This document shows positions 23,113 through 37,464 of a stretch of 37,824 nt of DNA, in pieces. The notes beneath the pieces are model-generated. The model was not told the origin of the DNA and made no database searches. It was given only the letters and a program-made list of their open reading frames with translations. Position 1 is the first letter of the stretch, and every line of letters starts with the position of its first letter. Location: assembly GCA_945870085.1 (NCBI GenBank), contig CAMBQX010000002.1, forward strand, positions 1 to 37,824, in the 5' to 3' direction. The position numbers and the translations under genes are program-made. This DNA comes from Bifidobacterium breve (GTDB lineage: Bacteria > Actinomycetota > Actinomycetes > S36-B12).

Positions 23113-23739
23113 TCAAGCCTGTGCCTCCTTACCCGTGCGAAGCCAACCTGTGACTCGTGCGAGTCTTGCCCCCTGCATGCGGGCAGCAGTCAGGGCCACC
23201 TCATCGGGAGCCGCCCCGCTGCGGGAAACGAATGAAGCTCCATACGGGTTTCCGGAGACCTTGAGCAGATGCTCATTTTCATAACCGAGCGGCAGCACAA
23301 TTGATCCCCAGTGATAGAAATGATTATTAATTGCAAGAATGGTCGACTCCAATCCCCCGTGAGCCGTTGAGCTGGAAGTAAAGGCTGTTCCCACCTTGTC
23401 TACGAGGACCCCTTTCGCCCATAAGCCCCCGGTAGTGTCAAGAAAAGCTTTCATCTGACTCGCGGGGCCGCCAAAGCGCGTAGGAGAGCCGATGGCAATG
23501 GCATCAGCCCAAGCAATATCGTCGAGAGTGGCAACCGGCTCTTTGGCATTAACTTTGACGAACTCAGCCCATTTTGGGTTGTAGGCAATCGCCTCAGGGG
23601 GCGCCAATTCCGCTACGCATCGCACCCTGACCTGTGCTCCCGCAGAAGCGGCACCTTCGCCAAGTGCTTCTGCCATCGCGGCAACATTACCGGTTGACGA
23701 GTAATAGATAACGGCAACATTGCAGGTGGTCTTACTCAT
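23113..23739 (-). CDS. wrbA: NAD(P)H:quinone oxidoreductase type IV (WrbA, flavodoxin-like)
   Basis: ATG at 23739 preceded by AGAGGAG; the track ORF is N-terminally over-extended to 23832. Motifs VIYYSSTGN, GSPTRFGG and a WrbA-type C-terminus. Confidence 0.85.
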   Translation of the reverse strand: MSKTTCNVAVIYYSSTGNVAAMAEALGEGAASAGAQVRVRCVAELAPPEAIAYNPKWAEFVKVNAKEPVATLDDIAWADAIAIGSPTRFGGPASQMKAFLDTTGGLWAKGVLVDKVGTAFTSSSTAHGGLESTILAINNHFYHWGSIVLPLGYENEHLLKVSGNPYGASFVSRSGAAPDEVALTAARMQGARLARVTGWLRTGKEAQA

Positions 23740-23756
23740 GGTGCTCCTCTGTTTAA

Positions 23757-24671
23757 TTACGAAATGGGCGGGAATACACCTGCACGGCCGGCCAGAGCCG
23801 GTGGTGTGCGTTCCAACAGGCTGCCAACCCATTCGGCGGTTGAGACTATGACATCGCGCTTAATTCCGGTGTGGAAACCACTTCGCACAGCGAGAAAGTC
23901 CAGATCTTCGGTGGCGATATTTCCGGTTGCCGCAGGTGAAAATGGGCAGCCCCCAAAACCCCCCGCTGCAGCATCAAGTACACGCACACCCTCCTCCAGG
24001 GCAGCAGCTGCATTCGCATAGCCGGTGTTGCGTGTGTTATGAAAGTGAAACCGCACAGGGATTCCAGGAGCTACCTCTCGAACCATGCCGGTCAATGCCC
24101 GGACCTGCGCTGGCACGCCCACACCGATTGTGTCGGCTAGGGCGATCTCATCTACTCCGGCCTCGGCAAAGACACGCACCACAGCGCGCACCTGATCTAC
24201 ACTCACCTCCCCATCGAATGGACAACCGAAAGCAACCGCGGCCGTTCCCGTAACGGGAACACCGGCACTTTTTGCATCAGCGGTCACCGCTCGGACCACC
24301 TGTAGCATGTCGGCGACATCAATGTTCTGATTGGCCCGACTCATTCCATCAGTCGAAGGTACCACCACATTTATCTCGTCCACACTGCTAGCCAACGCTC
24401 GGTCATTCCCTCGCTGGTTTAGGACAAGCCCGCTATAAGAGACTCCGATGTCTCGTTGAAGGCCCGCCATCACTTCCTCAGCAAAGGCCATCTGCGGCAC
24501 GAGCTTAGGATTGACGAAACTCACCGCCTCTATACGACGAACACCTGCTTTAACTAACCGGTTGATAAGTTCAATTCGATCGTCGACAGACAACGGGATA
24601 CGCTCGTTTTGCAACCCATCACGCGGACAGACCTCAAGGATGGTTATCTTTTCGCTGGACATAGACCCCAT
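23757..24671 (-). CDS. Hydroxymethylglutaryl-CoA lyase family (HMGL-like DRE-TIM) protein
   Basis: 304 aa. N-terminal EVCPRDGLQNE, the SFVNPK.VPQMA region, and a metal-binding HFHNTRNTG motif. Confidence 0.85.
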   Translation of the reverse strand: MGSMSSEKITILEVCPRDGLQNERIPLSVDDRIELINRLVKAGVRRIEAVSFVNPKLVPQMAFAEEVMAGLQRDIGVSYSGLVLNQRGNDRALASSVDEINVVVPSTDGMSRANQNIDVADMLQVVRAVTADAKSAGVPVTGTAAVAFGCPFDGEVSVDQVRAVVRVFAEAGVDEIALADTIGVGVPAQVRALTGMVREVAPGIPVRFHFHNTRNTGYANAAAALEEGVRVLDAAAGGFGGCPFSPAATGNIATEDLDFLAVRSGFHTGIKRDVIVSTAEWVGSLLERTPPALAGRAGVFPPIS

Positions 24672-24829
24672 TTTTCCATCATTCGCAATAAGTTAATAGT
24701 CGGTATGCAATCACACTAACAACTCACAGGTTTCGACCTCTTGTTATCGAGAAGCTACCCCGCCTAAAGTCTAGGCCTCGGCGCGCTAATCCACATCTCG
24801 GCCATTGAACTCGGCCACTCTCGTCAGGG

Positions 24830-25744
24830 TCATTCCGCGGCGGGTGAGTCGTACATGAACCGGTACAAATCCGGTCGCCGGTCATTCCAGACCGGCCAGA
24901 GTGAACGCGCCTTATCCAACTCGGAAAGATTCAGCTCCGCACTTATGATTTCAGGCTGCTGGTGCGCTTTCGCCTCGGCGAGGACTTCGCCGCTCGGCGC
25001 AATAATACAGGACCGCCCGAAATAGTCGGTCACGTGTCCCCGGTGATTTTCCAACCCCGCCCTGTTGGCTGCGATTACGAAGACTCCAACTTCCATTGCC
25101 CGGAGCCGCAAGTCATCAACAAATAATGATTCGCGCCAGCCAAAAGATGAGACGGCAGCAATCACCACCTGCGCTCCAAGGTGCCGATTTGCTAGCCATA
25201 CTTCAGAAAAGGCGCGGTCGTAGCAAATAAGTGCCCCCAACCGAACCCCGTCTAGATCGAAAGTCATCGGCGACGGCCCTGGCTTGCAGTACGCAGCCTC
25301 ATCTACTCTCAGGTCTCCAGAGAACACCGACGGCGCAGTCAACTTTCGAAAAGTCTGATATCGCTCGCCGTGCGGACCTACACCTTCAACAAGGTATCCG
25401 CGGCTATCCAGCAATACCAGTGAGTTGTACACAATGCCATCCGCGCCCCTTTCCGCCATCCCAAATGCGACCGCCGTCGATGTCTTGCGAGCAATATCGG
25501 AAAAGAACTTAGTTGTTGGCCCGTCCACAGGTTCAGCCCACTTTTGAGCCTCAGGATCAAATGGACCGGAGGCAAAGTAGGCAGTGGTACACAATTCCGG
25601 CAAGAGGACCAAATCTCTACCCTTATGCGAGGCCTGTTGGACTAGAACGGCCAAGGCCGCTAGATTCTCAGGTACCGAAGGCCCGCAGCCCCCGGATTGC
25701 ACTACCGCAACCTTCAAAGCACTCTCCCTCGCATGAGGAGTCAA
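24830..25744 (-). CDS. Carbon-nitrogen hydrolase (nitrilase superfamily amidase)
   Basis: E/K/C triad contexts LLPEL, FRKL and ALICYDRAFSE. The maximal ORF starts at the TTG at 25744. An internal TTG at 25717 has a better SD (AGGGAG 6 nt upstream). Confidence 0.8.
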   Translation of the reverse strand: MTPHARESALKVAVVQSGGCGPSVPENLAALAVLVQQASHKGRDLVLLPELCTTAYFASGPFDPEAQKWAEPVDGPTTKFFSDIARKTSTAVAFGMAERGADGIVYNSLVLLDSRGYLVEGVGPHGERYQTFRKLTAPSVFSGDLRVDEAAYCKPGPSPMTFDLDGVRLGALICYDRAFSEVWLANRHLGAQVVIAAVSSFGWRESLFVDDLRLRAMEVGVFVIAANRAGLENHRGHVTDYFGRSCIIAPSGEVLAEAKAHQQPEIISAELNLSELDKARSLWPVWNDRRPDLYRFMYDSPAAE

Positions 25745-25915
25745 CCTACCCAGATTTACGCTCCCCGTCCAGAACTTCCCCGCCTATTCCGTCCAGCGGG
25801 CGAAAGGGACAATTTGCCGAGTTAAACGGGACATTTACAACAATTCGGTGGCTCAGCGTGCGAAAAGACTCTACATATTGTATGCATAGGGGTCACTAAG
25901 CGAAAGGATCTGTCA

Positions 25916-26929
25916 GTGCCGTCGGCCACCATCAAGATCGAGGCTCGAGAGAAAGCCCGGCAAAGCGGAGTTATGGCTCGACGGGTTCAAGCGTATTCGA
26001 TACTTGTTGCGTGGGCGTTCCTTATCTTAGTATTCACTCTTCTGCTGCCCGATACCTTCCTCACTATTCAAAATTTCACCGCCATCGCCAACTCGAAGAC
26101 CGCTACTGTTCTGCTCACTTTGGGCTTGATCTTTGCACTTGCCGCTGGCGAATTTGACTTGAGCATCGGGGCGGCGCTTTCCTTGGGGGCAGCGATCCCG
26201 GCGTGGCTGTACGACGTATACGGGACTCCAGTTTTGATCGGTATCCTCGTCGCGTTGATGGCGGCCGCCCTGATGGGAGCATTAAACGCCTTACTTTCAG
26301 TGAGATACAGCATCCCTTCGCTGGTGGTAACCCTTGGTACCGGAACGGCCGTCATTGGCTTGGTGGCCGGCATCGTCGGTAACAGTACAATTTCGATTCG
26401 CGGCGACTGGTGGAACGAGGTGCTCACCCACCGTACCTTCGGTCTCTACACCTCGTTTTGGATCGTGATGCTGATCGCCTTGATTATTTGGTATATCCTT
26501 CAACAGACTCCGATCGGCCGGCACCTTTATTTTGTGGGCCAAGGTCGTGAGGTTGCCCGCCTTGCGGGTATCAGGGTGAATGCTTACCGATACGCAGCCC
26601 TGATCACGTCAGCGACACTTGGCTGTCTCGCTGGAGCGTTCCTGCTCGGGAATACCGGAGCCATCCAAGCGCGGATCGGGCAATTCTTTATTTTGGCTGC
26701 CTTTGCGGCAGCATTTCTAGGGTCCACAGCCATCGTTCCAGGGCGGTTCAATGCCTGGGGCACCGTGGTGGCTGTTTACTTTATTGAGACCGGTATCACC
26801 GGACTACAGCTCCTAGGCCTTCAGGCCTGGGTTTCGGACGTCTTCTACGGCACCGCGCTCGTGGTCGGCGTCCTCGTGGCTACTCTTGCCACACGTTTGC
26901 GGTCGCGCCTTTCGGCACGGTCGACTTGA
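25916..26929 (+). CDS. ABC transporter permease (RbsC/AraH-type, sugar-class)
   Basis: 337 aa with a GTG start. Roughly 9-10 hydrophobic spans with ribose-type permease composition. Followed by the binding-protein and ATPase genes. Confidence 0.8.
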   Translation: MPSATIKIEAREKARQSGVMARRVQAYSILVAWAFLILVFTLLLPDTFLTIQNFTAIANSKTATVLLTLGLIFALAAGEFDLSIGAALSLGAAIPAWLYDVYGTPVLIGILVALMAAALMGALNALLSVRYSIPSLVVTLGTGTAVIGLVAGIVGNSTISIRGDWWNEVLTHRTFGLYTSFWIVMLIALIIWYILQQTPIGRHLYFVGQGREVARLAGIRVNAYRYAALITSATLGCLAGAFLLGNTGAIQARIGQFFILAAFAAAFLGSTAIVPGRFNAWGTVVAVYFIETGITGLQLLGLQAWVSDVFYGTALVVGVLVATLATRLRSRLSARST

Positions 26930-26946
26930 TTACGAGAGGAACACAT

Positions 26947-28167
26947 ATGAAGCAGCGCAGCATTAAGCGCTCTCTTGGGCAGCTAGCTGCCCTCGGGATC
27001 GTATCGGCCGTCGTCTTGACGGCCTGCGGTGGCAGCAGCAGTGGCGAGGCCACGTCTGCTGCGCCTGAACCAGCCCCGGTAGTTGCATCGGAAGCACCCG
27101 CGGAAGCCGCAGCAACTGAGGCTCCAGCACCTGGTCCAGCCGATGGGGTTGTGGAGGCGTTGGCTCGCTACGATGCAGCCAAGGCGCCAATCGTTTTCAG
27201 TTACCCGGGTGAGGCTTTTGATGCCGCCGCTTCGGCAAAGGGCAAGAAAGTCGCAATTATTTCTTGGGACGATCGCATCCCGATTTTGGCACAGTGGGGC
27301 GACACTATTCAGGCAGGTTTTCAGGATTACGGGGTGAAGGTCTCCCGCTCCTCGGCTGACTTTGACATCGAAGCCATCCCAGGTCTGTTCGCGCAGGCAG
27401 TCGCTGCCAAAGTCGACCTGATCGTGACAAACGCCATTCCGGGCGTCGTGGTCCCATTCGACACCATCGGCGACATTCCCGTGATGACAACTAATCAAAC
27501 AGCTAAGCCAGGGGTTGCGGCTGCTGACGGCATTATCGCGGACGTCTCCTTTGACTACACGATCCCAGCCCGCCTGATGGCTGACTGGTACATCGTTACC
27601 TCCGAAGGTGGCACGAAGGGCGATGCCCAAGTAGTGGCCTCAGAGGGTCAGGCATCAAGCCCGATCATGGTTGAAGAAATGCAGGCGGAAATTGCAGAAC
27701 TGTGCCCCGACTGCAAGGTTAACTTCGCCGATGCGCAACTTGGCTCCTGGTTTGATGGAGTACTGGCCAATGAGACACGCAATGCGCTCACCGCCAATTC
27801 GAACCTCAAGTTCTTGTTGCCGATTTACGATGGTATGACCTTGGCCGGTACCGACCCAGGCATCTCCGACGCTGGTAGCGACGCCACTCAGGCTTCGTTC
27901 AACGCGACCCCAGATGTCATGAAGGGTCTCGGTACCAGCTCGGTGAAAATGGACGTCGGCTGCCCGAATGACTGGTTCGGCTACGCAGTTGTTGATGCCA
28001 GTATGCGCATCTTCGCCGGAGCACCTTCCATCGCTGACTACGGCATCACCTGCCGCGTTTTCGACGCCGGGAACATCGGGGACATCGACCCATCAACGGA
28101 GAATTCCATGAACTGGTATGCAATTGACTTCTTAAAGGAGTTCAAGAGCTACTGGGGCACTCCGTAA
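26947..28167 (+). CDS. ABC transporter substrate-binding lipoprotein (type-I periplasmic-binding-protein-like), substrate unknown
   Basis: ATG at 26947 after GAGAGGA. Signal peptide with the lipobox LTAC, then an Ala/Pro/Glu-rich linker. Sits between the permease and ATPase genes. Confidence 0.7.
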   Translation: MKQRSIKRSLGQLAALGIVSAVVLTACGGSSSGEATSAAPEPAPVVASEAPAEAAATEAPAPGPADGVVEALARYDAAKAPIVFSYPGEAFDAAASAKGKKVAIISWDDRIPILAQWGDTIQAGFQDYGVKVSRSSADFDIEAIPGLFAQAVAAKVDLIVTNAIPGVVVPFDTIGDIPVMTTNQTAKPGVAAADGIIADVSFDYTIPARLMADWYIVTSEGGTKGDAQVVASEGQASSPIMVEEMQAEIAELCPDCKVNFADAQLGSWFDGVLANETRNALTANSNLKFLLPIYDGMTLAGTDPGISDAGSDATQASFNATPDVMKGLGTSSVKMDVGCPNDWFGYAVVDASMRIFAGAPSIADYGITCRVFDAGNIGDIDPSTENSMNWYAIDFLKEFKSYWGTP

Positions 28168-28216
28168 CTAGCACCTGCAGCATCAAGTTGGTGTAGTAAC
28201 TCTAAGGGAAGGGAAC

Positions 28217-30181
28217 GTGGTGGCCGAAACAGTCCTGCAGATTACGGGACTGTCGAAGACCTTCGGGGCAACTCGAGCGCTCATTGATGTTGACTTCAGT
28301 GTGCAAGCGGGTGAGGTTCATGGGCTTGTGGGGCGAAATGGCTCAGGCAAGTCCACCCTCATCAAGGTGCTTAGTGGTTACCACGTTCCCGACCCAGGGA
28401 GCCAGCTCACTCTTGGCGGGCGAGAAGTCCAGTTGCCCATTTCTGGTCGGCAAGCCGCGGCCCACGGCCTGGTGTTTGTGCACCAAGATCTAGGCTTGGT
28501 CCCCGCCTACAGCGTGCTAGAGAACATCCGGCTCAATTCTTGGAATGCCCACGGCTTCGAGCGTATTCATTGGAAAACCGAGACCGCGGAGGTTGAGGAA
28601 GAATTAGACCGCTTTGACCTTAATGTCAGGGCAGAAACACCAGTCGCGGCTCTTTCCCAGGTTGATCGTGCGATCGTCGCGATCGTAAGGGCGATGCATC
28701 ACCTTGGTAAGGACGGAAGAGGCAAGGTACTCGTGCTCGATGAGCCGACCGCCTATCTACCAAAAGATAGTGTTGAGCGAGTCTTTGAGGCCGTACGCAC
28801 CGTGGCCCAAACCGGAGCCGGCGTGGTCCTCGTCAGCCACCGCACGGACGAGGTGCTTTCACTCACCGACCGCATTACCGTCTTGCGTGATGGGCGCAGA
28901 GTTGACACTTTGATTACTTCTAAAACTGATGAACAAACTTTGGTCTCACTCATTCTTGGCCAAACCCTGTCGTCTTTCTACCCTGATCAGGTCACTGCAA
29001 AGTACGGCGATAGAGTCCTTGAAGTCGAAAAATTAAACGGTGGTCTCGTGCGGGATTTTAATATTACTGTTAACCGCGGTGAAATTGTCGGCCTTACCGG
29101 GCTAATGGGCGCCGGTCATGACGAAGTCCCCTACTACATTTTCGGAGCCCGGGATGCAAGTTCGGGACACATTGTCGTTAATAACCAAATACTGAAAACC
29201 CAAAAAGCCAGGCCTTCTAAAGCAATCGCAGCCGGTGTAGTGCTCCTCCCTGCCGATCGGCTCAATCTTTCAGGATCGGCCGCGGCCTCTGTCGAGGACA
29301 ACGTCGTGGTTCCGGTTTTCTGGCGCTACTTCTCCGGTGGTCGATTGAAGCTTGCCCAGATTCGCACACGCGTCAATTACCTGCTTGAGACCTTCGATGT
29401 CCGACCGGCACTACCCACTCTCGAGTTTAGTTCACTCTCGGGAGGCAATCAACAAAAGACCCTGCTTGCGAAATGGCTGCAGATGGAACCCGCCCTTCTG
29501 CTACTTCATGAGCCAACCCAGGGCGTAGACGTTGGCAGCAAGTCTGAAATTTTCTCCCGCATCACCGATGCGGCCGAAGCAGGTGCAGCGGTCATCATCG
29601 CGAGCGCTGAATATGAAGATCTTGCGAATTTGTGCACCCGAGTCCTCGTATTCGACAGCGGTCGCGTGGTGGGGGAAGTCTCTGGGGCTGAAATGTCGGC
29701 GGATCGCCTCCTCGATCTTTGCTACCGGGGCGCCCGCGCACGTGGAGCACACGGAATGATCTTTCAGTGGCGCCCCTACCGGATTGGTTTCGTTCCTCAA
29801 GGAATAGAGCCGGAGTTCATTGAAACTCCAGCTCCAGTAAGTGTTTCATATGTTTTTCAGTGGCGCCCCCACCGGGTAGGTTTTGTTAAACTTCTAACTT
29901 TGCAGAAAGCAATGGAGCCGGTTGCCACACCTTCACTAGAGCGTGTCTTTCAATGGCGCCCCCACCGGGTAGGTTTTGTTCCTCAAGGAATAGAGCCGGA
30001 GTTCATTGAAACTCCAGCTCCAGTAAGTGTTTCATATGTTTTTCGGTGGCGCCCCCACCGAGTAGGTTACGTTGAACTTCTAACTTTGCAGAACTCAATG
30101 GAGCCGGTTGCCACACCTTCACTAGAGCGTGTCTTTAGGTGGCGCCCCCACCGGGTAGGTTACTTTGACGCTGCCGAGTGA
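28217..30181 (+). CDS. Tandem-domain sugar-type ABC ATPase (RbsA/MglA-like). The core ends near aa 505-513, and the ORF runs on in frame through a repeat array
   Basis: GTG start after AAGGGAAGGGA. NBD1 has GRNGSGKST and VLVLDEPT. NBD2 has LSGGNQQK and LLLLHEPTQGVD. The ATPase-like sequence ends around ...SADRLLDLCYRG. The last ~141 codons (29756-30181) are the repeats. Whether that tail is translated as part of the ATPase is unresolved. Confidence 0.8.
   Translation: MVAETVLQITGLSKTFGATRALIDVDFSVQAGEVHGLVGRNGSGKSTLIKVLSGYHVPDPGSQLTLGGREVQLPISGRQAAAHGLVFVHQDLGLVPAYSVLENIRLNSWNAHGFERIHWKTETAEVEEELDRFDLNVRAETPVAALSQVDRAIVAIVRAMHHLGKDGRGKVLVLDEPTAYLPKDSVERVFEAVRTVAQTGAGVVLVSHRTDEVLSLTDRITVLRDGRRVDTLITSKTDEQTLVSLILGQTLSSFYPDQVTAKYGDRVLEVEKLNGGLVRDFNITVNRGEIVGLTGLMGAGHDEVPYYIFGARDASSGHIVVNNQILKTQKARPSKAIAAGVVLLPADRLNLSGSAAASVEDNVVVPVFWRYFSGGRLKLAQIRTRVNYLLETFDVRPALPTLEFSSLSGGNQQKTLLAKWLQMEPALLLLHEPTQGVDVGSKSEIFSRITDAAEAGAAVIIASAEYEDLANLCTRVLVFDSGRVVGEVSGAEMSADRLLDLCYRGARARGAHGMIFQWRPYRIGFVPQGIEPEFIETPAPVSVSYVFQWRPHRVGFVKLLTLQKAMEPVATPSLERVFQWRPHRVGFVPQGIEPEFIETPAPVSVSYVFRWRPHRVGYVELLTLQNSMEPVATPSLERVFRWRPHRVGYFDAAE
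29756..30166. repeat. Tandem array of five 33-nt cores at exact 93-bp spacing, with two alternating 60-nt inter-core segments (186-bp higher-order unit, ~2.2 copies)
   Basis: Cores start at 29762, 29855, 29948, 30041 and 30134 (TTTCAGTGGCGCCCCCACCGGGTAGGTTTTGTT-like). Segment A (29795-29854) is identical to 29981-30040. Segment B (29888-29947) differs from 30074-30133 at 3 nt. Confidence 0.95.
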
Positions 30182-30897
30182 GGCTTCGCAGCGAATACCT
30201 CAAGCCTGACATAGTCGACGCAGCGATCACCCATTGTGCGCGCAACCTGCGTTCGCTGCTCATCGCTGAGACGATGAAGAACAACATTTTTTAGGTAGTC
30301 AAGGTAAATCACGTCTGTTTGAAAAACTGCAGGTGCGATCCGCAGATTAACCTCTATCGGAGTAAGCCCCACGCATCGCAAGTGGCCAATAGTTTCGTCC
30401 ACCCCAGCGTAATGCCAAAGTGGCAACAAGTCTCCAGCGGAGACAGCATCAACGGCCGCCAGAAGACGCTCAATATTACCCTCGCCGCCTGCATCAATTC
30501 GCACGCGGCCCCCAGGTTTGAGGACTCGGGCAACCTGCTCCCAAGCACGTTCAGGCCTCCCCAGCCAGTGAAAAGCAGCGACCGACATCACCGCGTCTAC
30601 GCTTTCTGTTTCAACCGGCCAGGTTTCCATGAGATCAGCAGCGCAGATTTTCACCTGCGCAGAGCCGATGAATCGGCGTTCACATGCGGCACGCATCGTA
30701 GGTGAAGAGTCCAGCCCGATGATGGAACCACGCGGCAAACGAGATAGCGCGAGAGCAGCGTCTCGCCCGCTGCCACAACCGGCATCAACGAGGATCTCGT
30801 TACCGTTGAGTTCCATTTTGTTAACAACCCTTTGCCCCCACTCTTCGTGCGGCAGCGGCAGTGCTTCATACCTGTCAGGGTCCCAAGAAATGGTCAC
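30160..30897 (-). CDS. Class I SAM-dependent methyltransferase, trans-aconitate-methyltransferase (Tam)-like
   Basis: GTG at 30897 overlaps the selD stop (GTGA); the track ORF is over-extended to 31056. N-terminal WDPDRYE, SAM motif I VDAGCGSG, then GLDSSPTM and AAFHWL, as in Tam. Confidence 0.8.
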   Translation of the reverse strand: MTISWDPDRYEALPLPHEEWGQRVVNKMELNGNEILVDAGCGSGRDAALALSRLPRGSIIGLDSSPTMRAACERRFIGSAQVKICAADLMETWPVETESVDAVMSVAAFHWLGRPERAWEQVARVLKPGGRVRIDAGGEGNIERLLAAVDAVSAGDLLPLWHYAGVDETIGHLRCVGLTPIEVNLRIAPAVFQTDVIYLDYLKNVVLHRLSDEQRTQVARTMGDRCVDYVRLEVFAAKPHSAASK

Positions 30898-31901
30898 AAT
30901 GTTCGCCCGCCCGCAGTGATCAACACATCCCGCTCTTCTGGATATTTCCGCGCGTGGACGTGACCAATCGGCCAGAAGCCAGCGGGAATGGGACCCGGAG
31001 CAATAGCGGCCAGCAGACCACCGGATGTCTGTGGATCGACCAAAAGAGCAAGCCAATCCTCAGTGACCCGGATATCGGTGCGGGACTGGACCCACTCTAA
31101 GTTCGTATCGTGAGCAGAGGTGCGCCAACCGGCCAAGGCTAGAGCATGTACTCCATTCAAAAGTGGGATCTTGTCAACGGAAAGCGATACGGTGATGTCT
31201 GATGTGACCAAACCCAGCAGATGGCCAAGCAGCCCGTAGCCAGTGACATCTGTGACCGCATGGGGTCCACCCGAAAGACAGGAAAGTTCACGTGCCGCAT
31301 CCATTGCCGGGGTCTGCATCAAATGAAGAGCCTCCGGTAACACTGATGGATCCTGCGAAGTCACAGCAAGTCCAACTCCCAAAGGCTTGCTCAAGACCAG
31401 AACATCACCAGGTTGGGCGCCAATTATGCGCCACACGCGATCAGGATGCACTACTCCCATCACTGAAAGGCCAAATAGTATTCCGTTCGAATGCACGGTA
31501 TGACCACCGGTAATTAGGCCGCCACAGCCGTGCATGACATCTCGAGCGCCCGCCATCATCGCGGCGATGTACTGCACGTCCGTGTCGCGTGGAAACGCCG
31601 CCAAACTGAGCGCACTTAAGACCTTACCGCCCATCGCGTAAACATCGTTTACCGCATTTGCAGCAGCTACGGCTCCCGAGACGTACGGGTCGAGCGTAAG
31701 TGGTGGGCTGACATCCATGGTGGTGACGATGGCACGAGTTGCGTCAAGAATTTGGACCGCGGCATCGTCAGGCACAGTTAGACCAACAAGAAGTTCAGGT
31801 GGATCCTGGACTTGACGAACCTGATCAACCAGCGTTGCAACCAAGTGTGGCGAGGCTTTCGCCGCACAGCCACCACATTCGCGCGGTGGCCGCTCTAGCA
31901 C
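30894..31901 (-). CDS. selD: Selenide, water dikinase (selenophosphate synthetase), Cys-type
   Basis: 335 aa; the GTG start directly abuts the upstream TAG. Aligns with remembered E. coli SelD: N-loop ECGGCAAKASP (GAGCGCKISP), PDDAAV (RDDAAV), TTMDV (STTDF), AAANAVNDVYAMGG (AATNAISDIFAMGG), AVTDVTGYGLLGH (AMTDVTGFGLLGH), DPQTSGGLL. Confidence 0.85.
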   Translation of the reverse strand: MLERPPRECGGCAAKASPHLVATLVDQVRQVQDPPELLVGLTVPDDAAVQILDATRAIVTTMDVSPPLTLDPYVSGAVAAANAVNDVYAMGGKVLSALSLAAFPRDTDVQYIAAMMAGARDVMHGCGGLITGGHTVHSNGILFGLSVMGVVHPDRVWRIIGAQPGDVLVLSKPLGVGLAVTSQDPSVLPEALHLMQTPAMDAARELSCLSGGPHAVTDVTGYGLLGHLLGLVTSDITVSLSVDKIPLLNGVHALALAGWRTSAHDTNLEWVQSRTDIRVTEDWLALLVDPQTSGGLLAAIAPGPIPAGFWPIGHVHARKYPEERDVLITAGGRTL

Positions 31902-33284
31902 CTAGACACCCTGACCACGCCAAATGTTGACGGCCTTGGATGCATCCTTGGCACCTGCAAGCCCCAGCACACTCTCCAAAATCTGCTGTCCAGCCGACCG
32001 AGTCGTCACAATTTCGATATTCGACATGAACTTTTCCTCGATCTCGATTGCCGAGAGTGGGCGCTCATCAGCCCCACGATTGACCGACTCACGATGTCGC
32101 AATTCCCGGCCATCGGTGGTTGTAATTATTACCTCTCCGCAAAAATGCCTAGGGAAAGTACTCTTCGGATCTATCTCGTATCGAACTCTTGACGCCACCG
32201 CCAGACTAGCGGAATCCGACAATGCTTCTAAATCCAGCTCAGCAAGGGTGAACCGTCGGCGGGTAGCTGCCGTCCCGACCAGATAGGCAAGTGAGAACTT
32301 GGCATCGTAATCTGAACATGGAGTCAGTTTTACCTCTGCGGGTTCGCAGACCACCGGGATAATCTCCGCGGGGACAAGGCACAATATGTCAGCAATATCA
32401 TCGGCGACAAGATCATTTTCAATAACAAGTGCCAAGGTGGCGTCCATGAAAGCATGAGTGAAGTGGCAGGCTGGGTAGGGCTTGATCGCCACACTGAGCA
32501 GTTCCCACTCCTCACCCAAAGCTCGGGTAGCCGCCTGCAAATCAACCTCATGGCCATCAGGGACGTGCGATGCGTACAGCCCAAACCGCCCTTCATAAAC
32601 ATCCGGAGGTGCTTGCCACCCCGCCGCCGCGAACCGCGCGGACATAAGTGCGGTGGAAGCAGCCCATCCAGGATGCATGCGCTTGGTCCACGCACCGGTG
32701 TCAAGGAACTGCAGCGAGCCTGCTGCAAGGCTGCCCACAATTCCTTGTGCCGCGGTAATGCCCTTCACGTCGAGGCCGCTCATTCGTGCGGCCGCGACCG
32801 CGGATCCAAAGGCTCCCACCAAACCTGTGGGGTGAAAACCCTTGGCATGGAAACCGCCATGAGCCCCTGCTCCCACGCGCGCAGAAATCTCGATCGCTAT
32901 CAGATATCCCAACAGTAGATCAGATCCCAAAAGGTGATCGCGTTCAGCGATGGCCATGGCTGTAGGAAGTGCTGAAGCCGATGCGTGGAGAATTCCAGAC
33001 GGATGAGTATCGTCGTAGTCAAGTCCATGTATAAGGATGCCATTGAGTAAAGCCGCGTCACCAAGCGGTAATCGTTGTGGCATCCCAATGACAGATGAAG
33101 GCCCCTCCCCCGAAGTTGCCAGTACCGCGGCGGCAACGAAATCATCACTGGAACAGGCGTATGCCAGGCCAACACAATCTAGAACATGAAGCGCGGCACG
33201 TTCACGAACTTGCTCCGGCACGTCCTCCCATGTGACGCGATGTGCCCACTCAGCAATGCGTGCAGCAATCGGATCGCTTTTCAT
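31902..33284 (-). CDS. MmgE/PrpD family protein (2-methylcitrate-dehydratase-like)
   Basis: ATG at 33284, 13 nt after the upstream stop, with GAGGAG. The track ORF is over-extended to 33413. Typical N-terminus (IAEWAHRVTWEDVPEQVRERAALHVLDCVG), DYDDTH, and a C-terminal PrpD domain. Confidence 0.85.
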   Translation of the reverse strand: MKSDPIAARIAEWAHRVTWEDVPEQVRERAALHVLDCVGLAYACSSDDFVAAAVLATSGEGPSSVIGMPQRLPLGDAALLNGILIHGLDYDDTHPSGILHASASALPTAMAIAERDHLLGSDLLLGYLIAIEISARVGAGAHGGFHAKGFHPTGLVGAFGSAVAAARMSGLDVKGITAAQGIVGSLAAGSLQFLDTGAWTKRMHPGWAASTALMSARFAAAGWQAPPDVYEGRFGLYASHVPDGHEVDLQAATRALGEEWELLSVAIKPYPACHFTHAFMDATLALVIENDLVADDIADILCLVPAEIIPVVCEPAEVKLTPCSDYDAKFSLAYLVGTAATRRRFTLAELDLEALSDSASLAVASRVRYEIDPKSTFPRHFCGEVIITTTDGRELRHRESVNRGADERPLSAIEIEEKFMSNIEIVTTRSAGQQILESVLGLAGAKDASKAVNIWRGQGV

Positions 33285-33297
33285 GTACCTAACTCCT

Positions 33298-34599
33298 CTA
33301 ACGCTCGGATGTAATTGATGTTTTGCTGGTGTCAAATCGCAGTCCAAGGCTCTCCGCGATGGTGGTTCGCTGCACCTCATCGGTACCACCAGGAATGCGG
33401 AGGTTACGAGCAATCTGGAAAAGCTTGTTAATTGAGGTATCGCGCATCACACCAAGGCCACCATGGACTTGCAAAGCGCGATCGGCCACACGATAGAAAC
33501 TTTCATCGTTACTAACCTTCAGGGCGCAGATGCGGCGAATCTCATCACGCGGCCGGGGGATTCGGTACCACGGGCCCGGAGTATCGATTGCTCGCGCCAC
33601 TTCGAGTGATAACGATCTTGTCTGCAGCCAGTCGACGTACATATCCGCAATCATCCACTGGATCCCCTGATTGGCCCCTAACGGCATACCGGCAATCTGT
33701 CTATCGGTGGCACGTTCTAGTGTCCGCTCAATCAAATAGCGACTCCAACCAGAGCACATTCCGGCTCTTCGCATTCGCGTGTAATTGAATGACATCACCG
33801 CAATATCGAATCCCTGCCCTACTTCACCAAGAATCGCACTCTCTGGCAGCACTAGATCATCAAAAAAAATCTCACCGGTGTACCCGTCACCGAACATTGT
33901 TTGATACAGGTTTCCCAACCGGTACCCACGCGACGCGGCTTCTCGCGTATCGAACATAAAATAGGTAAAAGAACGACGGCCACCTTTTGGATCAGTCACC
34001 GCCAGTATCTGTGCAACATCGGCATCAAAGTAGTTGGTTATGTAGGCCTTGGAACCATTTAACACCCAGTCAGACCCGCGCTTCTCGGCCTTGGTCGACA
34101 TATCGAACAAATTGCTTCCGGCGCCAGACTCGGTAACACCGTGAAGGGAAGTCTTTTCGCCGCGAACGAGCGGATCGGTGAACTCTTGACGCTGGTGATC
34201 GTGAGCGAACAGCAAACGAGGAGTTGCTCCCTCCGACCAGGAGAGAAGAGCCGGGTTGAGACCTACCCCGTAGCCGTATACCAACTCCTCGACATAGATC
34301 ATTTCCTCACGCCCCAACCCGAGCCCGCCAAGGTGCTCCGGAAGGTGTGCGCTGTAGATACCTTTTTTCCCCGCTGCACGCATTATTTCGCGGCGAGCCT
34401 GCACGATTTCGGGGTGTAGCCGCCCATCACTATCCAAAAACTCTCGCTCATTGCTCAGCCGGTGTGCAAGAGATGCCTCACGAGGTTCAACCTCCTCGCG
34501 GTGGAGTTGACGAACTTTTTCGAGAATATCCTTCAGGTGCTCAGGGGCCTGAGCATCTTGCAGCAGAACTTCTGATTCATGTGCCGCCGTGCTTACCAT
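33298..34599 (-). CDS. Acyl-CoA dehydrogenase-fold flavoprotein, non-canonical active-site motif
   Basis: 433 aa. ACAD three-domain layout (HGVTESGAGSN, WVLNGSKAYITN, C-terminal helical domain). The usual YEGT reads PGGT. ATG preceded by AAGGAG, with a 7-nt overlap onto the upstream gene. Confidence 0.8.
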   Translation of the reverse strand: MVSTAAHESEVLLQDAQAPEHLKDILEKVRQLHREEVEPREASLAHRLSNEREFLDSDGRLHPEIVQARREIMRAAGKKGIYSAHLPEHLGGLGLGREEMIYVEELVYGYGVGLNPALLSWSEGATPRLLFAHDHQRQEFTDPLVRGEKTSLHGVTESGAGSNLFDMSTKAEKRGSDWVLNGSKAYITNYFDADVAQILAVTDPKGGRRSFTYFMFDTREAASRGYRLGNLYQTMFGDGYTGEIFFDDLVLPESAILGEVGQGFDIAVMSFNYTRMRRAGMCSGWSRYLIERTLERATDRQIAGMPLGANQGIQWMIADMYVDWLQTRSLSLEVARAIDTPGPWYRIPRPRDEIRRICALKVSNDESFYRVADRALQVHGGLGVMRDTSINKLFQIARNLRIPGGTDEVQRTTIAESLGLRFDTSKTSITSER

Positions 34600-35993
34600 C
34601 GGGAGGACTCCTTCATTATTTGGGGGCGTTCAAGATAAATCGGCTCAGTTTCAGGAACAGGCATTGCAATAGGTGAAAGCGGCAGGGCTGATTTTATCGA
34701 AGCACCCGGTCGGTGCCCGACAAAAAATGGGCGTCGCGCCAAACCATGCAGGAGTGGTGCAATATCAGCAGCGCGTAGCGAACCGAGCGCCCCCGAAAGT
34801 GCCGCGGTTTCCCCGAACTCTCGGACAGAATCCTTGCGCTGTTCAGGAGCGACAACAACTATGGGTGTGGGGTCACCACTGTGCATGAGTAATCCTTCAC
34901 TTGGTGTCGCGTGGTCACCGGTCACAGCAAGCACGAGATCACCCCGATCAATAATGTCAATAAAAGCCGCGATGGCAGCATCGCACGCTTCTATCGCGGC
35001 TATCTTGGCCTCGGGTTTCTTGGTGTGACCGGCTTCATCCGGTGCCTTTGTATGAACATGAATAAAATCAGGACGCTGCTCTTCACCTAGAAGACGAATG
35101 GCCGACTGGACCCGCGCACTCAGGCCTAGCCCGGCGTCCTCCGCGGGCGCAGCGACATCAACCTCGCGCATCCCTAGGGTTCTAGCCAAACCCCGGTAAA
35201 GCGCACTGCTCGTTACCATGGTCCCTTGCACTCCCACAAGATCAAGAAACGAAAGCGGTTGCCCGGCTATAGACGGCCACTTGGTCGTGGGAACGGTAAT
35301 TTCTAAACCTGCGCATACTAGGGTCGCGTGCGCTCCAAGGAGGTACGCCTTCAGCGCCTCAGCTGTGCGCCGCGCCTCGACTAGTCGGCGCCCACCTGCA
35401 ACGACACATTCTTGTAAAGGCACGGGCAGCATCCAAGGGTGCATGTGATCAAAGAGCGGGTCCGAGTCGCTGACCTCGATCGATTCAAGCCCGTGGGCTA
35501 GCAAAACCCACTCTCCGAGTCGTAGTGATTCAATGCTGAATGAGACACCGTCAACGACGAATTCTTCGGTCCATTCCTGCAGAATCCGATTCAAAGTGTG
35601 GGCAATATCGCTGTGCTGCGACCCCATCCGGCCCGTAATTCGCATAACACCATCAACTTGTTCGCCACGCCGGGCTGCCAAGTGCCACATCGGCGTACCC
35701 AGTGGCGGGACTCCACCCTCACCAACCCACTCAAGAAGAGCCCGGCCTGGAAAAGCCAGCTCCGGTAGTCCGAACATCGCCCAATGCGATCGCTCACTCG
35801 AAGTTGCCCAACCTGGTCCAAAAGGCACATGAACACCGTTGGCTCCTCTCGCGGCTAATTCATCCAGAGCCGGAGTCGAAGCAACTTCTAATGGTGTTCG
35901 CCCACCTAGGGACAAACAGGGACGATCACCCAAACCATCAAGGACTACGAGAACGACGGGTAGGTCATCGCGCTGCGGCCACTTCGACTTCAT
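34593..35993 (-). CDS. ApgM-like cofactor-independent phosphoglycerate-mutase family / alkaline-phosphatase-superfamily phosphomutase
   Basis: ATG at 35993 (ATGA overlap); the track ORF is over-extended to 36053. Metalloenzyme motifs VVLDGLGD, ASTPALDELA, HTKAPDEAGH and TGDHATP. Confidence 0.7.
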   Translation of the reverse strand: MKSKWPQRDDLPVVLVVLDGLGDRPCLSLGGRTPLEVASTPALDELAARGANGVHVPFGPGWATSSERSHWAMFGLPELAFPGRALLEWVGEGGVPPLGTPMWHLAARRGEQVDGVMRITGRMGSQHSDIAHTLNRILQEWTEEFVVDGVSFSIESLRLGEWVLLAHGLESIEVSDSDPLFDHMHPWMLPVPLQECVVAGGRRLVEARRTAEALKAYLLGAHATLVCAGLEITVPTTKWPSIAGQPLSFLDLVGVQGTMVTSSALYRGLARTLGMREVDVAAPAEDAGLGLSARVQSAIRLLGEEQRPDFIHVHTKAPDEAGHTKKPEAKIAAIEACDAAIAAFIDIIDRGDLVLAVTGDHATPSEGLLMHSGDPTPIVVVAPEQRKDSVREFGETAALSGALGSLRAADIAPLLHGLARRPFFVGHRPGASIKSALPLSPIAMPVPETEPIYLERPQIMKESSRW

Positions 35994-36520
35994 GTGGTGC
36001 TCATTCTCATTGGCAACCCCGAGGCGACTCCGTCCGGCAGGAGTGGCCGCCATGCTGCTTCATCACCCTTAAGCCAGGCCAGACGAATATCTGTGGCTCG
36101 GACGGCGTGCAATGCGTCGCCCTCGATAACCCTAACCGGGTACCCACCCGTTTGCAGTATCTGCACCTTGTCAGCCTCCCAATTCGTGAAGACCCGAACA
36201 AACTGCACCGCATCCAACGGAATGTAACTGGACCACGCCTTTGGACGATCGAGAGGAAAAGGAACTATGTGACAACGATCTTGCAGGCCCTTGTATTCAA
36301 GGGCCGATTGAATCATGTTCTGACGCTCCCAGTAGGTGAAGGGGTTCGACTCAGGTTGATGCCGATGTGCTGACGATGCATTTGCTTTCCACGATGCAGG
36401 ATCTGGATTAGTAATCCCAATAAAGACGATCTCGGCTTCGGCCAAGGCGATGTTCAATAATTCCCAGTGGCCAATATGAAAGGGTTGAAACCGACCCGTT
36501 ATCCCAGCCCGAGTCAGCAC
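35990..36520 (-). CDS. NadM-like nucleotidyltransferase (nicotinamide-nucleotide adenylyltransferase / cytidylyltransferase superfamily)
   Basis: 176 aa with a GTG start. (H/T)xGH motif GRFQPFHIGH and a second motif, RATDIR. Confidence 0.7.
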   Translation of the reverse strand: MLTRAGITGRFQPFHIGHWELLNIALAEAEIVFIGITNPDPASWKANASSAHRHQPESNPFTYWERQNMIQSALEYKGLQDRCHIVPFPLDRPKAWSSYIPLDAVQFVRVFTNWEADKVQILQTGGYPVRVIEGDALHAVRATDIRLAWLKGDEAAWRPLLPDGVASGLPMRMSTT

Positions 36521-36527
36521 TGCTTCA

Positions 36528-37190
36528 TCACCGAGCCCGCGACTCCAGATGGACTATCACTTCAGCCGAACTATTGAGATCTGCATACCTCCGTGACACA
36601 TCTCGCATATTGTCTTCGTGTGGCCCCAGTTCTTGATCTCCGCAGGCATCCTCGACAACAATCGTTTTGAATCCGTGACTGAACGAATCAACGATTGATG
36701 CACGCACACAGCCCGAGGTCGTAACTCCCATGATCAAAACAGTGTCAACTCCGCGATTTCTTAGGATGGTGCTCAGATCGGTTCCGAAGAATGCCGATGG
36801 ATACCTCTTAATCAAATAGATATCTGAGTCTTCCCACAACTGCGGAAGTATCGAAGCAGCGTGTGAATTCGGTGCGATATCTCGCAAACTCGGGACCTTC
36901 CAGTTTGTGAACTCATCATTATGAGTCCAAGCAACCGCCGTATGAACAACAGGAATTCCAGCCTGGCGCCCCACTGACAGCACACTCTCGGCGTTCTTAA
37001 CCGCCTGCGCAATATGCTCACTACGGCCCGTGGCGAAACTCGGATCGCAAAAAGCCTGTTGGAAATCAACCGCAACAATCGCGGGGCAAGTACCCCAGCC
37101 GACAGTAGTAATACCGTATCCAGCTTCAGCAAACTGATCTTTAATAGCTTTTACCGCCCTTCCTCGGAGGCTAGTGGTGCATCCCTGCTT
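36528..37190 (-). CDS. Isochorismatase-family amidohydrolase (N-carbamoylsarcosine-amidase / nicotinamidase-like), start unresolved
   Basis: Catalytic D/K/C contexts PAIVAVDFQQAF, LIKRYPSAF and TTSGCVR. The frame is open from 37190, but the first in-frame ATG/GTG/TTG is the GTG at 36983, which would delete the Asp strand. An SD-ATG at 37199 is followed by GAA TGA in the same frame. Confidence 0.65.
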   Translation of the reverse strand, partial: KQGCTTSLRGRAVKAIKDQFAEAGYGITTVGWGTCPAIVAVDFQQAFCDPSFATGRSEHIAQAVKNAESVLSVGRQAGIPVVHTAVAWTHNDEFTNWKVPSLRDIAPNSHAASILPQLWEDSDIYLIKRYPSAFFGTDLSTILRNRGVDTVLIMGVTTSGCVRASIVDSFSHGFKTIVVEDACGDQELGPHEDNMRDVSRRYADLNSSAEVIVHLESRAR

Positions 37191-37464
37191 TCATTCCATT
37201 GGACGCTCCATACCCGCAACTGCCCTATCACCGCAGTCTATCGGGGAATCCAGATATCGGCGCCCGAGGTGACCCCATACTCCAAGGTCCTCGCATACTC
37301 CCAGGCGAACAAAAGTGCTACAGCCAAGGAGGTCTACTCAGGTAATTGGAGTACCGATAACGATCGAGTCCTCGGGGCGGTAGGCGCAGGGAGCACTGGG
37401 CGCTGCGGTAGATTGCGACAAACAAGTCCAGTACGTTGTCACTGCTTCCACTGAGGAGACATTA

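Follow-up and report, generated by a model that had tools for sequence, protein, structure and literature searches.

A conserved selD-containing gene module in genomes lacking known selenophosphate consumers: a candidate pathway to a selenium small molecule

Genes of the selD Operon

The gene encoding selenide, water dikinase (SelD) lies within a seven-gene, operon-like module near one end of contig CAMBQX010000002.1, and this module is the subject of the present report. The window, that is, the whole stretch of DNA analysed, is the entire 37,824-bp contig (C2) of the metagenome-assembled genome (MAG) G000 (1.78 Mb in 224 contigs, 79.3% complete, GC content 56.8%). Open reading frames (ORFs) combined with Pfam and NCBIfam profile annotation place seven co-directional, tightly packed genes on the minus strand between 30160 and 37145. 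From high to low coordinate, the first three encode an isochorismatase-family cysteine hydrolase (36528–37145; PF00857, 91.8 bits), an NMNAT/PhpF-like nucleotidyltransferase with an HxGH motif (35990–36520; CTP_transf_like, PF01467) and an ApgM/PhpG-family metalloenzyme of the phosphotransferase type (34593–35993; PF01676, 126 bits). These are followed by a flavoenzyme with the acyl-CoA dehydrogenase (ACAD) fold that belongs to a module-specific subfamily (33298–34599; three ACAD Pfam domains), an MmgE/PrpD-family dehydratase with both of its domains (31902–33284; PF03972 and PF19305), SelD itself (30894–31901) and a class-I S-adenosylmethionine (SAM) methyltransferase (30160–30897; Methyltransf_11). 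An initial annotation of this DNA had given the same order, strand and family identities, and all of these hold except its description of the methyltransferase as Tam-like. The methyltransferase is a generic class-I enzyme that scores 43 bits against the trans-aconitate methyltransferase model (cut-off 320), and its best NCBIfam match is BioC at 60 bits (cut-off 185).

The junctions between these genes were computed with starts supported by orthologs, namely 33284 for the PrpD-type protein, 35993 for the ApgM-like enzyme and a GTG at 30897 for the methyltransferase. Gaps of 7, 13 and 0 nt separate the isochorismatase from the nucleotidyltransferase, the ACAD from PrpD and PrpD from SelD, respectively. 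The nucleotidyltransferase and ApgM-like genes overlap by 4 nt (ATGA), the ApgM-like and ACAD genes by 7 nt, and the SelD and methyltransferase genes by 4 nt. All of these lengths reproduce exactly those first proposed. Relatives of the operon keep tight junctions, as in the 4-nt SelD/methyltransferase overlap retained in loci L012 and L014. The conserved overlaps suggest translational coupling, and the module looks co-transcribed. Scans for promoters and terminators returned matches at chance level and are uninformative on the operon boundaries. The divergent genes found upstream of the module in relatives are cut off here, where the contig ends at 37824.

The N-terminus of the isochorismatase-family protein needs a separate comment. 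The ORF as listed (GTG at 36983) is about 54 residues shorter than its orthologs of about 205 aa, and the catalytic Asp is among the missing residues. The upstream frame (36984–37148, minus strand) is open to 37145/37148 and holds the catalytic Asp (AVDFQQ). This in-frame region contains no ATG; ATT codons are found at 37145 and 37112, and the genome of the same species, G011, has an ATG at the position equivalent to 37112. Loss of the start codon, initiation at a non-AUG codon or a sequencing error in the MAG could each account for this.

SelD and the Known Uses of Selenophosphate

The SelD of the module matches TIGR00476 over its full length with 269 bits, against a curated cut-off of 125, and carries the AIRS N- and C-terminal domains (PF00586 and PF02769). 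When aligned to E. coli SelD (3u0o), its Cys12 and Lys15 match Cys17 and Lys20 (GGCAAK vs GCGCK), and the motifs DDAAV, NxxND/AMGG, GGH, TDVTGxGLLGHL and DPQTSGGLL are all kept. The initial annotation had claimed an intact N-loop Cys and Lys together with the Asp/Asn motifs, and had taken the protein for a true SelD rather than another PurM-like family member; the alignment bears out the first claim, and the score and canonical motifs bear out the second. By family membership the protein is a genuine selenophosphate synthetase, with this activity predicted from sequence. Every module SelD is of the Cys type with the loop CGGC(A/T)(A/S)K. In a phylogenetic tree, 55 of 55 module SelDs and 64 metagenomic SelD matches form one clade (SH-aLRT 97) that is separate from another clade of 54 SelD sequences, with weak rooting. 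This single clade fits one origin of the association followed by transfer between phyla.

The module copy is the only SelD found in G000 by the TIGR00476 search. A weak PurM-superfamily (AIRS) protein is encoded on another contig (C59:6401-7087, plus strand); it reaches 54.9 bits to TIGR00476, below the cut-off, and is probably ThiL-like and not a second SelD. The known consumers of selenophosphate were searched for in G000 and in five relatives that carry the same module: one of the same species (G011), two of the same genus (G001 and G003), one of the same family (G024) and one of the same order (G030). Four of these relatives are at least 96% complete. No selA was found in the 79%-complete G000 or the five relatives. 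For selB, G000 gave translation-factor matches only, all below cut-off, and no tRNA for selenocysteine (Sec) is present among its 29 tRNAs. The selenouridine gene selU (TIGR03167) is missing from G000, and none scored above cut-off in the relatives. YqeB (TIGR03309) and YqeC (TIGR03172), the markers of Se-dependent molybdenum hydroxylases (SDMH), were not found in G000 or the relatives. The search for senB (TIGR04348) in G000 returned only generic glycosyltransferases below cut-off, and the Pfam annotations of the cluster include neither a sulfoxide-synthase-type protein resembling the EgtB-like SenA nor NHISS (OvsA). Thus, the locus has none of the known SelD partners, as had been claimed at the outset, and the search of the G000 genome for selA/selB/tRNA-Sec, selU and senB agrees with this. 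Each of the five relatives encodes exactly one TIGR00476 SelD, the module copy. In G000 and the five relatives the sole SelD lies in the module and selA, selU and yqeB are missing, which excludes a role for it in the Sec, selenouridine or SDMH pathways.

Conservation and Spread of the Module

The module recurs well beyond G000. Close metagenomic relatives of its SelD (52–79% identity) lie in loci that match the window in gene order, in the tightness of the junctions and in the convergent block downstream. A scan of genome contigs with the ACAD recovered about 60 loci at 63–98% identity, with the next-best ACADs at about 30%. Carriers within Actinomycetota are freshwater Nanopelagicales, including Ca. 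Planktophila lacus and acSTL, and other carriers are Gammaproteobacteria (Steroidobacteraceae, Woeseiaceae), Rhodospirillales, Longimicrobiales and Spongiisociaceae. In every lineage the nucleotidyltransferase, the ApgM-like enzyme and the ACAD are contiguous and in fixed order. Among about 56 informative loci from Actinomycetota and Pseudomonadota, about 50 have SelD next to this core, so the recurrence with selD on which the first proposal depended is found across phyla. Such conservation of the arrangement is not a matter of chance. The position of SelD differs between lineages: in Pseudomonadota it follows the ACAD directly, and in Actinobacteria it comes after PrpD.

Two lineages, Spongiisociaceae (G041) and Longimicrobiales (G042), have the core with no SelD in the module, and a separate SelD of the Sec type, its gene containing a TGA in frame, is encoded elsewhere in both genomes. 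In G043 (a complete Steroidobacteraceae chromosome), G044 and G045 (Ca. Planktophila lacus), by comparison, the SelD in the module is the only one in the genome. The distribution of the module is patchy at finer scale. Two genera of one order carry it commonly (5/5 and 18/38 genomes) and the rest of that order lacks it (26/301), and among 400 genomes sampled across the phylum it was found in G000 only. Lake metatranscriptomes of three studies, as assembled in Logan, contain pieces of the operon that stem from close relatives (95–99% identity). These fragments show that the operon sequence of relatives is present in lake samples, and they are weak evidence that it is transcribed, since DNA can be present in RNA libraries.

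Three module contigs, L042 (CAMDKJ010000007.1), L050 (CAMCBU010000007.1) and L088 (CAMBGF010000001.1), belong to MAGs labelled Bifidobacterium breve or Klebsiella pneumoniae, and the ACAD of L042 is 98% identical to that of G000. The contigs are almost certainly freshwater Actinobacterial ones that were wrongly labelled or binned, and the labels were not used.

Core and Satellite Enzymes

The conserved core of the module consists of the nucleotidyltransferase, the ApgM-like enzyme, the ACAD and SelD, and not of PrpD and the methyltransferase. The nucleotidyltransferase has archaeal NMNAT as its best NCBIfam match, below cut-off, and archaeal NMNAT 1ej2 as its PDB match. The ApgM-like protein aligns over its full length to Pyrococcus ApgM (2zkt) with the metal-site motifs kept. 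It scores 209 bits against NCBIfam apgM and 145.6 bits against PhpG (NF038358), both below cut-off; the equivalog cut-off for PhpG is 545, which makes the protein a relative of PhpG and not a member. This pair of a PF01467 nucleotidyltransferase and an adjacent ApgM-family enzyme is the best-conserved pairing of the module and corresponds exactly to PhpF/PhpG. In phosphinothricin biosynthesis, PhpF, the CTP-phosphonoformate nucleotidyltransferase and a member of PF01467, cytidylylates phosphonoformate (PMC6697681; bioRxiv 10.1101/2025.05.01.651723), and PhpG, a characterised enzyme of the ApgM family that hands the phosphonoformyl group on to an acceptor, is named CMP-phosphonoformate:3-phosphoglycerate phosphonoformyl transferase (NCBIfam NF038358). 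The suggestion in the initial annotation that a phosphomutase plus a nucleotidyltransferase forms an activation module therefore has a precise precedent.

No other protein of the module is as well conserved as the ACAD, whose copies at the module loci are all at least 63% identical. All 57 of 57 module copies have Gly at the position of the catalytic Glu376 of medium-chain acyl-CoA dehydrogenase (motif IPGGTDEVQR). This means either that the catalytic base lies elsewhere, as in ACADs of the IVD/LCAD type, or that the chemistry is unusual. One NCBIfam relative of the ACAD is 3-sulfinopropanoyl-CoA desulfinase, itself an ACAD and one acting on an acyl-CoA with a chalcogen substituent; the parallel to the module ACAD is offered as a lead only. 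An internal TAG that appeared in ACADs of the deep lineage in an order-level search lies upstream of the real start, hence these genes contain no in-gene stop.

Around this core, the satellites vary by lineage. PrpD is adjacent in Actinobacteria and about 1.5 kb upstream in Gammaproteobacteria. The isochorismatase-family hydrolase is restricted to Actinobacteria, and the methyltransferase is present in Actinobacterial versions and absent from Gammaproteobacterial ones. A CoA-transferase III accompanies the module in many lineages, with best matches to succinate-glutarate and mesaconate CoA-transferases. An OtsA-like GT20 protein and a methyltransferase are satellites of a deep Actinobacterial lineage. 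The GT20 protein was considered as a SenB-like Se-glycosyltransferase and rejected, because it resembles OtsA (trehalose-6-phosphate synthase family) and does not belong to TIGR04348. This distribution, the generic character of the methyltransferase and the separation of PrpD from SelD in Gammaproteobacteria speak against the part of the initial annotation in which an aconitate-like acceptor for selenophosphate was methylated by a Tam-type enzyme.

Neighbouring Genes

Convergent with the module lies a conserved block (23113–30181) that also stands beside it in loci L009, L012-L015, L029 and L031. In the window its plus-strand members are a Liv-type ABC ATPase (28217–30181), a 413-aa protein and a BPD permease, and its minus-strand members are a CN-hydrolase, an HMGL-like lyase and an FMN reductase. 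In relatives the block comprises a Liv-type ABC ATPase, a protein of 396–413 aa, a BPD permease, a CN-hydrolase, a CoA-transferase III, an HMGL-like lyase, FMN reductases and GntR. The ABC ATPase gene of the window contains a 186-bp tandem repeat at 29760–30161 (2.2 copies, 93% identity) that gives the protein a C-terminal extension of QWRPHRVGFV-type repeats. The repeat is shared with the same-species genome G011 and is missing from orthologs in other species (536–600 aa).

Upstream of the module in the Steroidobacteraceae loci L054 and L055 are genes for LipA, a LipB-like ligase, 3-hydroxyanthranilate dioxygenase and a TauE/SafE-family anion exporter. The LipA is a true lipoyl synthase (TIGR00510, 389 bits), and LipA/LipB were rejected as module members, most likely being a housekeeping lipoate operon. 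The exporter could be a transporter of Se oxyanions.

A Possible Selenium Pathway and Its Alternatives

A SelD-linked module in genomes that lack the known uses of selenophosphate would probably make an undescribed selenium-containing small molecule, and we assign a probability of about 0.5 to a dedicated pathway of this kind. The observations behind this reading are the gene identities, their conservation and co-localisation, the pattern of SelD complementation and the lack of other selenophosphate consumers. SelD is placed in the pathway by its genome context. Several of its features count for this reading, namely that it is canonical and of the Cys type, that it is the sole SelD in G000, the five relatives and G043–G045, that its adjacency to the core is conserved, that a Sec-type SelD complements the module where the adjacent gene is missing, and that all module SelDs form a single clade. 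The match of the core pair to PhpF/PhpG and the operon fragments in lake metatranscriptome assemblies count for it as well.

What the enzymes act on, the sequence in which they react and what they finally make are inferred from these observations and from precedent. In the proposed scheme, the module SelD would convert selenide and ATP to selenophosphate, and the nucleotidyltransferase would convert selenophosphate to nucleoside monophosphate (NMP)-selenophosphate by analogy with CMP-phosphonoformate. Selenophosphate is proposed as the substrate because no other phosphate analog comes as near to phosphonoformate in structure (H-Se-PO3 vs HOOC-PO3). The ApgM-like enzyme would then pass the selenophosphoryl group to an acceptor, possibly an acyl group or acyl-CoA, that is made or modified by the ACAD and, in many versions, by the CoA-transferase III and the PrpD-type dehydratase. 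Lineage-specific tailoring may finish the product through the methyltransferase (possibly by Se-methylation), the amidase-type hydrolase or the trehalose-phosphate-synthase-like glycosyltransferase. The full version of this proposal is tentative and on balance doubtful: a widespread third SelD-based pathway in freshwater Nanopelagicales and Steroidobacteraceae, with activation as NMP-selenophosphate and ApgM-type transfer to an acceptor derived from acyl-CoA, leading to an undescribed organoselenium compound or phosphoroselenoate.

Several points weigh against a selenium product. The best scores of the nucleotidyltransferase are to NMN adenylyltransferases, which makes a nucleotide precursor a possible true substrate, and the choice of selenophosphate is made by analogy. 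The ACAD has lost the usual catalytic Glu position, and its reaction is not predictable from the sequence. In two lineages the core persists with no SelD beside it, which means that the module's own SelD is not strictly required, though these genomes encode a SelD elsewhere. No description of the module was found in the literature. Finally, the CoA-transferase, PrpD and HMGL-like lyase satellites and the nearby Liv-type ABC transporter resemble a catabolic acyl-CoA pathway.

This last resemblance leads to the first alternative, in which the module encodes such a catabolic pathway and SelD feeds a step or cofactor within it that depends on Se or selenophosphate, with no Se product being secreted or stored. 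The acyl-CoA and organic-acid character of the satellites and neighbours (CoA_transf_3, ACAD, PrpD-type, HMGL-like lyase, Liv-type ABC transporter and CN-hydrolase) suits this alternative, as does the rank of the ACAD as the best-conserved protein. It is nonetheless unlikely: no known Se-dependent enzyme, whether a Sec protein or an SDMH, is found in the module or the genome, and the core nucleotidyltransferase and phosphotransferase have no obvious role in plain catabolism.

A sulfur pathway, in which the module SelD works with sulfide and thiophosphate serves for activation and transfer, is improbable. Enzymes of the SelD family are able to phosphorylate sulfide in vitro, the logic of nucleotidyl and phosphoryl transfer suits any phosphate analog, and the TauE/SafE-family anion exporter adjoins the module in Gammaproteobacterial versions. 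The catalytic motifs of SelD are canonical, however, the complementation pattern is the one expected of a need for selenophosphate, and no sulfur-specific genes are conserved with the module. Equally hard to credit is detoxification or volatilisation of selenium, in which activated selenide would be methylated or otherwise made excretable; methylation is the usual bacterial route of Se detoxification and the Actinobacterial versions do pair SelD with a SAM methyltransferase, but Gammaproteobacterial versions lack that enzyme and the route has no need for a nucleotidyltransferase or an ApgM-like enzyme.

If a selenium product is indeed made, the module would represent a second independent route from selenophosphate to small molecules, one that relies on nucleotidyl activation in the manner of phosphonate chemistry. 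Its carriers are abundant in lakes, and the module could matter for aquatic selenium cycling.

Comparison with Known Systems

To our knowledge, only two dedicated SelD-linked small-molecule pathways have been described, those for selenoneine and ovoselenol, and both depend on the SenB/SenC selenosugar donor. The selenoneine sen cluster (senA/senB/senC) includes a Cys-type SelD that is linked transcriptionally to its partners across bacterial phyla (Kayrouz et al., 2022; bioRxiv 10.1101/2022.04.13.486033). The module resembles it in dedicating a Cys-type SelD to what is probably a small-molecule cluster and in spreading over several phyla. It differs in having neither SenB nor the EgtB-like SenA, with PF01467, ApgM-family and ACAD proteins as partners instead. 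The ovoselenol cluster combines ovsA/ovsM with senB/senC (PMC11030361). It likewise joins SelD to a SAM methyltransferase, which there acts on a Se-containing small molecule. In contrast, the module lacks NHISS (OvsA) and SenB, contains a methyltransferase only in Actinobacterial versions and is built on a different core.

The PhpF/PhpG system shares the pairing of a PF01467 nucleotidyltransferase with an ApgM-family metalloenzyme. Unlike that system, the module has no phosphoenolpyruvate mutase (PepM/Ppm) among its cluster genes and has SelD in its place, and its enzymes are relatives only. By analogy, the small phosphorus acid handled by the module may be selenophosphate rather than phosphonoformate. 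Orphan SelDs have also been linked to SDMH in genomes without Sec or selenouridine systems (Haft and Self, 2008; PMC2276186). G000 and its relatives likewise lack both systems; unlike the hosts of SDMH, they have no YqeB/YqeC, and the neighbours of SelD are not molybdenum hydroxylase subunits. With the canonical SelDs of Sec and selenouridine synthesis, the module SelDs share the enzyme family and the catalytic loop, whereas they form a clade of their own, are all of the Cys type and occur in genomes without selA or selU. The set of SelD partners in the module is unprecedented, and the pathway would be the third linked to SelD after selenoneine and ovoselenol.

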